A stretch of DNA of 4,462 nucleotides from a virus (lineage: Duplodnaviria; Heunggongvirae; Uroviricota; Caudoviricetes). The stretch is taken from IMG/VR virus record IMGVR_UViG_2582580966_000016; one strand, 5' to 3'. The position numbers and the translations under genes are program-made. The notes below the pieces were generated by a model. It did not search any database and was not told the DNA's origin. It worked only from the letters and a program-made list of their open reading frames with translations. Positions 317 to 4,462 of the stretch are shown here, piece by piece (position 1 is the stretch's first letter; every line of letters begins with the position of its first letter).

Positions 317-907
317 ATGTCTCGAATTTTTGCTTACTGTCGGATATCAACGCTGGATCAGACCACCGAAAATCAACGCCGGGAAATCGAAAGTGCAGGT
401 TTTAAAATCAAACCTCAGCAAATAATCGAAGAACACATTAGCGGCTCAGCAGCAACCAGTGAGCGTCCTGGTTTTAACCGGTTGCTTGCTCGCCTGAAAT
501 GTGGTGATCAATTGATTGTGACAAAACTGGATCGCCTTGGTTGTAATGCAATGGATATCAGGAAAACAGTGGAACAACTGACCGAAACAGGTATCAGAGT
601 GCATTGCTTAGCATTGGGGGGCATTGACCTGACCAGTCCAACAGGAAAAATGATGATGCACGTAATTTCAGCAGTCGCTGAATTTGAACGAGACCTTTTA
701 CTTGAACGCACTCATTCCGGGATAGTAAGAGCCCGCGGCGCAGGGAAACGTTTTGGTCGACCACCTGTGTTAAATGAAGAACAGAAACAGGTGGTATTCG
801 AACGAATTAAGTCAGGTGTAAGTATAAGTGCCATTGCCCGGGAATTCAAAACCTCGCGGCAAACCATTTTAAGAGCCAAAGCAAAACTTCAGACACCTGA
901 CATATAA
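317..907 (+). CDS. pinQ: Serine recombinase / DNA invertase of the Gin-Hin-Pin-Cin family (PinQ/PinR-like), 196 aa
   Basis: 196-aa ORF in the ORF track. N-terminal catalytic motif [12 protein letters not shown] with the active-site Ser at position 11, resolvase-type catalytic core, and C-terminal helix-turn-helix ([20 protein letters not shown]). Near-identical to my recollection of E. coli K-12 PinQ/PinR, which I cannot tell apart by eye; the symbol follows the Qin-like context (adjacent nohA-like gene). Convergent with tfa as in Rac/Qin. Confidence 0.92.
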
Positions 908-1004: not shown

Positions 1005-1580
1005 CTACGGCAGTGCTGGCCATTCAATATCCGGTGCAGTTGATGTATCAACACGGTTCAGCAACACCCGATACTTTTTCCAGGCTTCCAGCAACAAGGT
1101 TTCTTCCTCCGTTGCGATCTCCAGATCCACAGCATCCTGAAGCGGCGCTATATGCTCACTGGCTATCTGCATCAGGCTGTTTTTTGTTTCTTCCGCCTCC
1201 CGGATCCGGAACAGTTTTTCTGCTTCCGTATCCTTCACCCAGGCTGTGCCGTTCCACTTCTGATATTCCCCTCCCGGCGATAACCAGGTAACATTTTCCG
1301 GTAACGGACCGAGTTCAGAAATAAATAACGCGTCCCCTGATGCCACGTCATAAACCGTTTTACCCCGATGATCTTCAACGAGATGCCACGATGCCTCATC
1401 ACTGTTGAAAACAGCCACGAAGCCTGCCGGAATATCTGGCGGTGCAATATCGGTACTGTTTGCTGGCAGACCTGTATGAGGCGGAATATATGCGTCACCT
1501 TCACCAATAAATTCATTAGTTCCGGCCAGCAGATTATAAATTTTTATGGTCCGTGGTTGTTCACTCATTCTGAATGCCAT
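1005..1580 (-). CDS. tfaQ: Tail fiber assembly protein (lambda Tfa family, TfaQ/TfaR-like), 191 aa
   Basis: 191-aa ORF; N-terminus [51 protein letters not shown] matches my recollection of K-12 TfaQ/TfaR. Its ATG overlaps the stop of the upstream stf remnant (TAATG on the minus strand), the usual stf-tfa coupling arrangement. A GAGG lies about 10 nt upstream. Confidence 0.88.
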
Positions 1581-1888
1581 TACGCAAGCCTCACAATATA
1601 GTTAAATGCGATGTTTTTGACGGTGTTTTCCGCGTTACCAGCAGCGTTAACGGTGATGGTATGTCCATGTGAACCAATCGCAACGGAGTGCGTATGAGCA
1701 CCAATACCGACAGTATGTGCGTGTGCACCTGCGCTTGCAGCAGTACCCGATACAGAGTGCGTATGAGCGCCTGCAGAAGAAGTGTTAACACTGTATTTAG
1801 AATAATCAGGTGATCCACTTCCCGGAGCACCACTGGAACCACCTGAAACAAATGTCATCGAATGGGTATGTGCACCGGCTGTCCCCAT
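1580..1888 (-). pseudogene. stfQ: Side tail fiber protein, C-terminal remnant of about 100 codons (stf'), with four GAHTHS His-box repeats
   Basis: Translation [17 protein letters not shown]...[64 protein letters not shown] is glycine/HxH-rich and typical of lambdoid side tail fiber C-termini. Only the C-terminal part is present; upstream DNA in this frame changes into J-like sequence near 1880. Confidence 0.7.
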
Positions 1889-2170
1889 GCATTTACCGCC
1901 CGGACTGTCAGCCTGTAATTTCCCAGCGCCAGCTGCGTGAAGCGATATGTGGTTTCCGTCGTCCGGGCCGTGCTGACCAACCGCTCACTGCCGTCGTCCG
2001 CTGCCACGGTCAGGCGAAGCATAAAGCTCACCCCCTTCACCACCTTCGGCGTGTCCCAGCGCGCCAGCACCTGGTATTCCCCGCTGTCTGCGGTGACTTC
2101 TGCGGTCAGGTGCTGAACTGCTGGCGGCGTGACACCATTCACCGTGCCGCTCTGGTCACCGTCAAAGTGC
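1855..2170 (-). pseudogene. Internal fragment of a lambda J-like tail tip / host specificity protein (J')
   Basis: Minus-strand translation ...[91 protein letters not shown] matches my recollection of an internal segment of lambda gpJ. It diverges after AVNAWGQ (about 1880) and starts where the Nu1 homology ends (about 2170). Its frame differs from both nohA and stf' (codon phases 0, 2 and 1), so there is no in-frame fusion. Confidence 0.65.
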
Positions 2171-2985: not shown

Positions 2986-3018
2986 TGACGCAGGTATCGT
3001 ATTAATTGATCTGCGTCA
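2986..3018. promoter_or_regulatory. Inverted repeat TGACGCAG-N17-CTGCGTCA upstream of the RHH ORF; candidate operator
   Basis: Perfect 8-bp arms at 2986-2993 and 3011-3018 with an AT-rich 17-bp spacer, 62 bp upstream of the ATG at 3080. Function is inferred only. Confidence 0.3.
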
Positions 3019-3079: not shown

Positions 3080-3280
3080 ATGTCATCAAAGAACAGAACC
3101 CGCAGAACAACAACCCGCAACATCCGATTTCCAAACCAGATGATTGAACAAATTAACATCGCTCTTGATCTGAAAGGTTCAGGAAACTTTTCAGCGTGGG
3201 TTATTGAAGCCTGCAGGAGAAGGCTGGCAACAGATGCAACGCATCTGCGCCCGGCCAGCATGAAAAATAACGAGAAATGA
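3080..3280 (+). CDS. Small ribbon-helix-helix-like DNA-binding protein, 66 aa (cos-proximal lambdoid ORF, probably YnfO/YlcI family)
   Basis: 66-aa ORF with a basic N-terminus (SKNRTRRTTTR), a predicted beta-strand NIRFP, then two helices (NQMIEQINIALDLKG / NFSAWVIEACRRRL), which is the RHH (Arc/MetJ-like) pattern. Weak SD GGGA 8 nt upstream. Position and orientation (divergent from nohA across cos) match my recollection of ynfO/ylcI in K-12 Qin/DLP12, but I do not recall those sequences well enough to assign the symbol. Confidence 0.75.
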   Translation: MSSKNRTRRTTTRNIRFPNQMIEQINIALDLKGSGNFSAWVIEACRRRLATDATHLRPASMKNNEK

Positions 3281-3411: not shown

Positions 3412-3744
3412 TCAGGGTGCAGAAGGACTAAAGATAAACGTTTTCTTCACGCCTTTACACGGCCTGTCCTTCTCAAATCGCCATTTTGCCATCGCCTTTA
3501 CAACCTGCTCATCAAACAAATGGTGCGGCTCTGAACGGATAAACTCAATTCGGGTGACAGTACCATCAGCACCAATATCAAACTTCACATCAACCCGTCC
3601 CTTTATATAATTTGCCGCTGCATAGGCCGGATATTGTGGTAATGCCTTAACCAACTGTCGGGGCATATCTGTTTTATGTTGCGTACAGCCCATAACCAGA
3701 GAAGACAACAAAATAATTAACGGAAGGTTTCTTTTCATTTTCAT
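3412..3744 (-). CDS. Predicted outer-membrane lipoprotein whose mature part is a TonB C-terminal domain (TonB_C-like), about 110-aa precursor
   Basis: Signal peptide MKRNLPLIILLSSLVMGC with lipobox LVMG-C and Thr at +2 (no Lol avoidance Asp, so predicted outer-membrane sorting). Mature region PQYPAYAAANYIKGRVDVKFDIGADGTVTRIEFIRSEPHHLFDEQVVKAMAKWRFEKDRP aligns by eye to E. coli TonB residues ~160-230 (YP...[49 protein letters not shown]). Start is ambiguous: GTG 3753, ATG 3744 or ATG 3738; 3744 chosen. Confidence 0.8.
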   Translation of the reverse strand: MKMKRNLPLIILLSSLVMGCTQHKTDMPRQLVKALPQYPAYAAANYIKGRVDVKFDIGADGTVTRIEFIRSEPHHLFDEQVVKAMAKWRFEKDRPCKGVKKTFIFSPSAP

Positions 3745-3758
3745 TCCCGGCACAGATA

Positions 3759-3776: not shown

Positions 3777-3983
3777 ACAATGCCACCCTGTCGGTCATCA
3801 ATCCTCTGCTTAATGGCAACGACAATTATCCGACTTAAATCACAAATCAGACACATGACATAACAGAGCTTGCGAGGTAACACATCGTCCGGTTTCTTCC
3901 ACCATCGCACCGGACCAGCGACCATGAGGGGACAACGCCGCGCTCCGTTAACACGGTAAACCCCGGTGTGTATCGTTTTTGAT

Positions 3984-4048
3984 TATCCCCGCACACTCGC
4001 GCAGAGGAGTCTCCCGGTCGGGCTGCGGTCTCTGTTAATGCGGGGATA
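3984..4048. repeat. Perfect 10-bp inverted repeat TATCCCCGCA / TGCGGGGATA enclosing a 45-nt GC-rich segment; candidate stem-loop or protein-binding element
   Basis: Arms at 3984-3993 and 4039-4048 are exact reverse complements. The enclosed segment has further self-complementarity (CAGAG 4002-4006 with CTCTG 4030-4034; GGAGtCTCC 4006-4014). It lies in a 329-bp ORF-poor gap (3754-4082) between two minus-strand genes. Confidence 0.35.
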
Positions 4049-4082
4049 CGGCGACAATACCGCGCATGGTTAATAAGGTCGC

Positions 4083-4307
4083 TCAACACACTGGCTGTAA
4101 TGCAGCGGATACCATGCGGCATTTAGCGGCATTCATCGTACACTCAACGGTTAGCTCTTCATTCGTGGCATTCACCTGAAAGGTCCGGGAGTGTAATTGC
4201 GTACATTTACCACTGAACGAACCTTCAACAAGAACACGACCACGCTGCAAAATACGGAACGGAATTGTTCCCTGAAAAGGCTTTACGGTTACCAGTAATT
4301 TCTTCAT
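4083..4307 (-). CDS. Hypothetical 74-aa protein, unrecognised, encoded directly downstream of Rz/Rz1 in the late-operon orientation
   Basis: ATG at 4307-4305 preceded by GGAG with 5-nt spacing (tccGGAGaatgcATG); the ORF-track start at 4325 is a TTG 18 nt upstream. Codon usage looks enterobacterial (CTG, CGT, GGT, ACC). No signal peptide; four Cys (34, 54, 61, 74). Translation MKKLLVTVKPFQGTIPFRILQRGRVLVEGSFSGKCTQLHSRTFQVNATNEELTVECTMNAAKCRMVSAALQPVC. Begins 23 nt after the Rz stop. Confidence 0.6.
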   Translation of the reverse strand: MKKLLVTVKPFQGTIPFRILQRGRVLVEGSFSGKCTQLHSRTFQVNATNEELTVECTMNAAKCRMVSAALQPVC

Positions 4308-4330
4308 GCATTCTCCGGATAACAAAAATA

Positions 4331-4462
4331 CTAGTTAATACACTGAGTGCGGATATATTCCTGCGCCCCTTCCAGTTGCTTCTGCATTGTCATCAACCGC
4401 TCTCTGAGGGTGAAATAATCCCGTTCAGCGGTGTCTGCCAGTCGGGGGCCGGTTGCATTATC
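4331..4462 (-). CDS. Rz: Rz (i-spanin, inner-membrane spanin subunit), C-terminal 43 codons; gene continues beyond the window end
   Basis: Not in the ORF track because no start lies in the window. Minus-strand frame open from the window edge to TAG at 4333-4331; translation DNATGPRLADTAERDYFTLRERLMTMQKQLEGAQEYIRTQCIN closely matches my recollection of the lambda Rz C-terminus (...SPRLADTAERDYFTLRERLITMQKQLEGTQKYINEQCR). Confidence 0.85.
   Translation of the reverse strand, partial: DNATGPRLADTAERDYFTLRERLMTMQKQLEGAQEYIRTQCIN
4393..4461 (-). CDS. Rz1: Rz1 (o-spanin, outer-membrane lipoprotein spanin subunit), C-terminal 22 codons, embedded in the +1 frame of Rz
   Basis: Second minus-strand frame translates IMQPAPDWQTPLNGIISPSESG then TGA (4395-4393), matching my recollection of the lambda Rz1 C-terminus (...AWIMQPPPDWQTPLNGIISPSERG). 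Embedded out-of-frame within Rz as in lambda. Confidence 0.8.
   Translation of the reverse strand: MMQPAPDWQTPLNGIISPSESG

Follow-up and report, generated by a model that had tools for sequence, protein, structure and literature searches.

A probable mobile accessory gene behind Rz in lambdoid prophages, possibly encoding a cytoplasmic binding protein

We analyzed a 4,462-nucleotide (nt) stretch of Caudoviricetes DNA (IMG/VR record IMGVR_UViG_2582580966_000016; hereafter the window) and focused on a 74-codon open reading frame (ORF) on its minus strand, at positions 4083–4307, directly downstream of the lysis gene Rz. Judged from its substitution patterns, this frame, here called ORF74, is almost certainly a real protein-coding gene under moderate purifying selection. 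Our favored reading, to which we assign a probability of roughly 0.4, is that it is a late-transcribed, mobile accessory (moron-like) gene for a cytoplasmic binding protein, possibly one acting in counter-defense or host modulation.

For the coding test, we used 105 related loci, which contained 35 distinct coding sequences. Nei–Gojobori pairwise ratios of nonsynonymous to synonymous substitution rates (dN/dS) ranged from 0.14 to 0.6 for all pairs with unsaturated dS. Among five full-length alleles with 63 to 100% protein identity, the median dN/dS was 0.30 in the ORF74 frame and 1.21 and 1.43 in the shifted-frame controls. The 23 near-identical alleles carried 11 synonymous changes at 52 sites and 12 nonsynonymous changes at 170 sites, corresponding to a pN/pS of ~0.33. 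Length differences were in frame only (–15, –9, and +27 nt). An earlier note made from the sequence alone, hereafter the original prediction, had proposed conservation of the frame in related prophages as a check, and the lack of frameshifting indels and the low in-frame dN/dS bore it out. A Shine–Dalgarno (SD) motif of the form GGAG, GGAGG, or AGGAG was present 5 to 7 nt before the start in all 25 distinct upstream contexts having their own start codon, and its conservation reached relatives of 32 to 36% identity in Yersinia and in metagenomic phages; a fused form without a start codon of its own (locus L084) fell outside this count. Mononucleotide shuffles of the window contained 2.3 ± 1.4 ORFs of at least 74 amino acids, and as chance ORFs of such length are this common, the gene call rests on conservation.

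In the window, ORF74 starts with ATG at 4307–4305 and ends with TGA at 4085–4083. The GGAG motif (4313–4316, minus strand) stands 5 nt before the ATG, and a 23-nt spacer (4308–4330) separates the start from the TAG of Rz at 4333–4331, in agreement with the original prediction. Of Rz, an i-spanin gene, the window holds the 3′ end with the last 43 codons (4331–4462, minus strand, cut by the window edge), which matches Pfam Phage_lysis with E = 2.4e-16 over profile positions 85–125 of 126 and carries the RefSeq label "lysis protein"; ORF74 and this gene end mark the strand of the late operon. The ORF74 frame could be extended to a TTG at 4325, giving 80 amino acids; we consider the ATG at 4307 the start because the TTG lies upstream of the SD motif and all homologues begin with MKK. 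The junction with Rz differs between lineages. In alleles from Shiga toxin (Stx) phages (loci L094–L095 and L002, with the junction at locus positions 3001–3004 or 4001–4004), the Rz TAG is changed to AAG or CTG, and the Stx-type Rz continues for nine more codons, its end overlapping the ORF74 start in ATGA. The same junction DNA is thus spacer in the window-type lineage and coding sequence in the Stx-type lineage.

A simple consensus scan, which provides a weak negative, found no promoter-like site upstream of ORF74, no terminator-like site between Rz and ORF74, and no terminator-like site downstream of ORF74 on its strand. Given the shared strand, the position directly after Rz, and the lack of promoter- or terminator-like sites in between, ORF74 is most naturally read as co-transcribed with the lysis cassette; the original prediction had reached the same view, and we regard late co-transcription as quite probable. 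ORF74 would be read from the Q-dependent late transcript with S, R, and Rz and be translated from its own conserved SD motif, and in some alleles it would be translationally coupled to Rz via the ATGA overlap. Synthesis of the protein would coincide with that of the lysis and structural proteins, late in the lytic cycle. The host-like codon usage claimed in the original prediction did not stand: the GC content of ORF74 is 46% in total and 44% at third codon positions, lower than in the neighboring stretch of Rz (52 and 59%) and similar to that of the moron encoding a TonB_C lipoprotein further downstream (44 and 43%).

The protein had been called unrecognized in the original prediction. Its exact sequence is RefSeq WP_000735655.1 ("hypothetical protein") and UniRef A0A0D6ZJZ6 ("Uncharacterized protein"), is encoded on at least 1,000 public contigs, and matches PHROG 2571 ("unknown function") with E = 2.8e-28 and 99.9 bits, residues 1–73 aligning with profile positions 100–172. 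The further claim that it could be assigned to no family agreed with our searches of Pfam (E ≤ 1) and NCBIfam, neither of which gave a match. Using blastn, we found ORF74 in 1,244 of 5,426 complete Escherichia coli genomes (23%), with up to six copies per genome; tblastn yielded 26 phage records with the gene, among them Stx1a-, Stx2a-, and Stx2c-converting phages, where the identity was 76%, and some phage records leave it unannotated. Relatives are also found in Salmonella and Yersinia. Relatives retrieved from 5.8 billion clustered proteins and from 1.8 billion cluster representatives came only from E. coli/Shigella, Salmonella, Yersinia, and metagenomic contigs, and none bore a functional name. 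As no relative turned up among representative genomes, one for each bacterial species, we consider the family part of the accessory prophage pool. Searches of a literature library by accession, PHROG identifier, and genomic context revealed nothing on the protein. Phmmer matches to the giant repeat proteins P0068, P0069, P0071, P0073, P0079, and P0080, which contain the unrelated Pfam repeats He_PIG, DUF5122, and TQ, were treated as compositional or beta-strand artifacts. The gene is common in E. coli, often in multiple copies, and present in Stx1 and Stx2 phages of enterohemorrhagic E. coli, and it has been catalogued without an assigned function.

Without exception in the enterobacterial clade, ORF74 is on the late strand, with the lysis cassette before it and the packaging genes after it. 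The cassette upstream is either of Rz type or an unrelated one with holin_8, holin_3_7, and M15 peptidase, and the terminase genes downstream are of three types: lambda-type Nu1/A, HK97-type Terminase_4/TerL, and the Stx-phage terminase with an HNH gene. Phage homology resumes 17 nt past the ORF74 stop, at a conserved noncoding module (3886–4066, minus strand). In Stx2 phage II, mEp332, and the K-12 prophage DLP12, the place between Rz and this module is taken by bor on the opposite strand, while in other copies the slot is empty: the 5′ flank of the module reads as the Rz C terminus, IRTQCLK and a stop, and the module seems to come immediately after Rz. Most phages whose Rz is closely related lack ORF74 and have bor in the slot instead, and their lysis cassettes often host unrelated insertions, for example, Ant and DUF1327. 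ORF74 is one of the alternative cargoes carried in a known variable slot between the 3′ end of Rz and the noncoding module. We found the module conserved, with sharp homology borders, in 398 phage records, a number well above that for ORF74; it is separately mobile, not part of ORF74, and marks the downstream border of the ORF74/bor slot.

Sharing the slot with bor of lambda, DLP12, and 933W-type phages, ORF74 also departs in composition from the core gene Rz. However, bor encodes an outer-membrane lipoprotein on the opposite strand, whereas ORF74 has an unrelated sequence, a cytoplasmic product, a late-operon orientation, and no promoter-like site. Bor is expressed in the lysogen. Morons in the sense of Juhala et al. 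2000 reportedly lie between conserved genes in some phages only, are odd in composition, and have their own promoter and terminator. ORF74 shows the presence and absence in the slot and the compositional difference; a promoter and terminator of its own were not found by the simple scan, a weak negative. In some E. coli and Salmonella prophages, ORF74 is followed by an ORF of 66 to 71 amino acids, which in three of the four loci checked belongs to PHROG 4280 ("unknown function," with a weak DUF7457 match; 68 to 71 amino acids, at L097 3266–3481, L098 4265–4471, and L100 4182–4397). We rejected this ORF as a conserved partner of ORF74, as it is not obligatory and has no counterpart in the window.

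The distant homologues all map to positions ~100–170 of PHROG 2571, with E-values from 1e-17 to 1e-22. The profile is 291 positions long, some members having additional N- or C-terminal domains, and ORF74 represents the bare domain. The 81-amino-acid homologue P0074 has an ATGA overlap with the end of a 204-amino-acid gene and is followed by an Acb2_Tad1_hairpin gene (E = 2.3e-17) and then by Nu1. In P0076 (L084, 225 amino acids), these two neighbors have become one protein, with a related N-terminal domain (phrog_11851) fused to the ORF74-like domain, and an Acb2-like gene follows, again directly ahead of Nu1. These Acb2-neighbor loci are found in metagenomic lambdoid phages (L087 5390–6598, L088 2392–3600, and L084 131–1147), and the 204-amino-acid gene, the ORF74 homologue, and the Acb2_Tad1_hairpin gene may form a small counter-defense cluster. 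Acb2 and Tad1 are cyclic-nucleotide sponges and resemble ORF74 in their size, single domain, lack of an enzymatic motif, and patchy mobile distribution. They form a helical hairpin (PF24729), however, whereas ORF74 is all-beta and has no PF24729 match, and the resemblance is by context only. Other homologues have other surroundings: P0070 (181 amino acids, with the extra C-terminal domain phrog_2091) is located between Q and the holins, and P0078 of Yersinia in an early/accessory region between a Ser/Thr kinase and ParDE, Erf, Xis, and Int.

Structure prediction, another check proposed in the original prediction, produced a confident all-beta model. Using an alignment of 26 sequences, AlphaFold2 gave a mean predicted local distance difference test score (pLDDT) of 90.2 and a predicted template modeling score (pTM) of 0.76, with no low-confidence segment; the model consists of seven strands and one short helix. 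ORF74 is accordingly modeled as a soluble, cytoplasmic, single-domain small beta-sandwich of ~8 kDa. The four cysteines noted earlier are residues 35, 56, 63, and 74, the last being C-terminal, and the reported lack of membrane and export signals was confirmed: no transmembrane segment was found, the highest 19-residue Kyte–Doolittle mean being 0.76, nor a signal peptide, the beta strand of the model beginning at residue 2. Only residues F17, Q21, L26, G33, and K34 are invariant across the family, and none of the cysteines are. We rejected a cysteine-based Zn site or essential disulfides, as the enterobacterial clade retains only C35 and C56, and distant members have other residues at both positions.

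Searches for characterized relatives were negative. When the family profile was compared with all PDB sequences, no match fell below E = 0.8; Foldseek searches of the PDB and of predicted viral structures had no match at E ≤ 0.001; and PADLOC-DB v2 gave no family at E ≤ 0.1 for ORF74, P0074, P0076, or P0078. A lead toward lambda J and Phage_Tail_Tip was discarded: hhalign of the family profile with gpJ gave a probability of 0.2%, and BLASTP likewise spoke against it.

With no catalytic motif, a small size, and few conserved residues, the protein would be expected to act by stoichiometric binding, and its likeliest target would be a host component or a component of an anti-phage defense. We favor such a target because the family moves among classical accessory slots of temperate phages, because ORF74 is dispensable for the phage type, because it evolves fairly fast (dN/dS of ~0.3), and because one lineage adjoins an Acb2/Tad1-type gene at the same pre-terminase position. 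That ORF74 is a binder acting in counter-defense or host modulation is nevertheless proposed tentatively, and the fuller idea, that PHROG 2571 is a new family of slot-shuttling small beta-sandwich proteins neutralizing a host defense or other host factor late in infection, is somewhat more doubtful. A counter-defense or host-modulating role of ORF74, if real, would bring a new fold into that repertoire and bear on the spread of Stx phages between strains; if ORF74 were to have no phenotype, it would be one more conserved phage orphan.

Several observations weigh against a counter-defense or host-modulating role. Counter-defense genes are more typically early. The Acb2 neighborhood is confined to a single distant lineage (P0074/P0076), with no instance in the E. 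coli clade. The enterobacterial ORF74 travels with the 3′ end of Rz, which could mean a functional link to lysis, and its fold resembles, weakly, those of lectins and carbohydrate-binding modules (CBMs). Finally, the absence of a promoter rests on the simple consensus scan.

The strongest rival, itself unlikely, is a cytoplasmic lysis modulator, coexpressed with S, R, and Rz/Rz1 and tuning the timing or completeness of lysis via the holin, the endolysin, or the cytoplasmic tail of Rz. The adjacency to the lysis cassette and the possible translational coupling to Rz fit such a role, but beyond adjacency we found nothing for the lysis regulator suggested in the original prediction. Rz has an N-terminal transmembrane helix and a periplasmic coiled coil, and Rz1 a lipoprotein signal with a lipobox cysteine; spanins act in the periplasm, whereas ORF74 has no transmembrane segment or signal peptide. 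When tested as a spanin (Rz/Rz1), it had no Pfam match at E ≤ 1, no transmembrane segment, and no lipobox, its first cysteine being residue 35 and its fold all-beta from residue 2; tested as a holin or antiholin, it had no transmembrane segment and no holin match in Pfam or PHROG. Most phages with a close relative of this Rz carry bor in place of ORF74, ORF74 also follows the unrelated M15-peptidase cassette, the distant homologues P0074 and P0078 lie away from lysis genes, and unrelated insertions such as Ant and DUF1327 are common in these lysis cassettes. A structural match to XepA of the lysis module of Bacillus PBSX is weak, comes without sequence similarity, and is no better than those to dozens of generic beta-sandwiches; XepA has 276 amino acids, is two-domain, and is exported. 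In all, ORF74 is probably not a core lysis factor, and of the two roles suggested in the original prediction, the host-modifying factor is the better one.

A little less likely is a moron of benefit to the lysogen, expressed from the prophage and excluding superinfecting phages or altering the host, comparable with Bor, Lom, and Cor of the same region. The bor slot and the moron-like composition agree with this, as does the protein being kept intact and identical in a defective, Qin-like prophage without head and tail genes, and ORF74 is followed by a gene that is a typical moron and has a promoter-like site of its own. Classical morons have both a promoter and a terminator, however, and no such sites were detected upstream and downstream of ORF74; it faces the late-operon direction, opposite to bor; its product is cytoplasmic, while the exclusion proteins of the region are located in the envelope; and it has no match in PADLOC.

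A role in morphogenesis or outside the cell, as a lectin- or CBM-like module joining the virion, aiding its assembly, or being released at lysis to bind surface glycans, is improbable. The weak fold resemblances are in its favor: the nearest shapes are small calcium-dependent lectins and CBMs (LecB/RS-IIL, CBM36, CBM35, and CBM6), with scores in the range of generic beta-sandwiches and identity of at most 18%. The LecB-like lectins and CBMs are larger, 110 to 140 amino acids, and no sugar- or calcium-binding residues could be identified in the cytoplasmic ORF74; homology to these modules is not claimable. That ORF74 is no functional gene, its frame being open by chance or through overlapping DNA or RNA signals, as the approximately two ORFs of such size per shuffled window and the missing annotation in some phage records might suggest, is effectively refuted by the frame-specific dN/dS (0.30 versus more than 1.2), the in-frame indels, the start and SD motif kept down to 32% identity, and the confident fold.

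The noncoding module bordering ORF74 may be the more interesting object. In lambdoid phages, it is found on the strand of the late transcript, with the lysis genes on one side and the terminase region on the other; it is ~170 to 180 nt long and was studied in 22 diverse copies. Among these, no frame was open in all copies on either strand, the lengths varied from 169 to 184 nt, and the indels were of 1 to 2 nt. RNAalifold predicted eight helices with 43 pairs, and standard pairs filled 98.0% of the cells of this structure, compared with 34 to 60% when the 3′ partners were slid. Five pairs had changed on both sides, for example, columns 162/182 with G–C in 13, U–A in 6, and G–U in 3 copies. The observed covariation score was reached by none of the 500 shuffles, a statistic that overstates the significance because the copies are closely related. 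The pairing was strand specific, with 98.0% standard pairs on the late-transcript strand versus 89.2% on the other, and G–U accounted for 87 of the 943 cells. An invariant single-stranded AUAAUCAAAAACGAU and a GGAAGAA loop were also seen. The compensatory and wobble pattern suggests that the module is a structured RNA, and it could either act in cis as part of the late mRNA or be processed into a small RNA (sRNA).

A covariance model of the module scored 215.9 bits in the window and 115.9 bits in DLP12 of K-12 MG1655, in the borD–ybcV interval, and also matched a Salmonella prophage; copies are located at NC_000913.3 ~579,009–579,176 (L230 3010–3177) and at L098 5167–5332. The K-12 RefSeq record annotates no RNA at the DLP12 site, Rfam gave no match to the module at E ≤ 1, and literature searches on borD/ybcV returned nothing relevant. 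We considered and rejected the Pas sRNAs and the anti-sRNAs AgvB and AsxR as identities, as both groups map to other prophage positions than the module (10.64898/2026.05.13.724894 and PMC4104026, respectively). A 1,163-nt query consisting of the module, the TonB_C gene, ORF74, and the 3′ end of Rz had matches in 4,540 of the 5,426 E. coli genomes; the module, absent from Rfam, is found in most E. coli genomes including K-12.

A 91-amino-acid ORF at 3847–4122 (minus strand) overlaps the 3′ end of ORF74 and the module and is labeled "Rz-like spanin" (phrog_6954). We rejected it as a gene, given the stops in every frame in several copies and the 1- to 2-nt indels, and both this label and ORF C87 of Stx2 phage II (L106 2476–2721) are very probably annotation artifacts.

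The window is part of a defective lambdoid E. coli prophage that resembles the cryptic prophage Qin. It contains the Pin invertase gene (317–907, plus strand), the tail-fiber assembly gene tfa (1005–1580, minus), tail-fiber and J fragments (1580–2142, minus), a gene similar to Nu1, the small terminase subunit (2139–2684, minus), and a YlcI/YnfO DUF3950 gene (3080–3280, plus). The 3′ end of the Nu1-like gene runs straight into the J fragment at 1855–2142 (minus), an FN3-like segment, and because of this fusion we consider the head and tail genes deleted and the prophage defective like Qin (nohA–stfQ–tfaQ–pinQ). ORF74 is intact in this defective prophage, and its protein sequence is identical to that of the copy in complete phages. 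In E. coli CB6837, a near-identical stretch (99.7%) lies inside a complete prophage with the order holin, lysozyme, Rz, ORF74, TonB_C, YnfO, terminase, and head genes. Inside tfa, we observed a full-length match to Rfam IS009 (RF02111) at 1039–1237 (minus), with 221.5 bits and E = 2.9e-55.

The gene at 3412–3753 (minus) encodes a lipoprotein with a TonB C-terminal domain (Pfam TonB_C, E = 1.4e-14). The protein is 108 to 113 amino acids long with the lipobox LVMGC, and the gene has its own promoter-like site at 3798–3771 (minus), reading ATGACC-16-TAGAAT with a TG. PHROG 1267 labels it, too, as an "Rz-like spanin," which looks wrong, and we consider this label and that of phrog_6954 on the module to be annotation carry-over. 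The lipoprotein could serve as a periplasmic decoy of the TonB C terminus against TonB-dependent phages or colicins.
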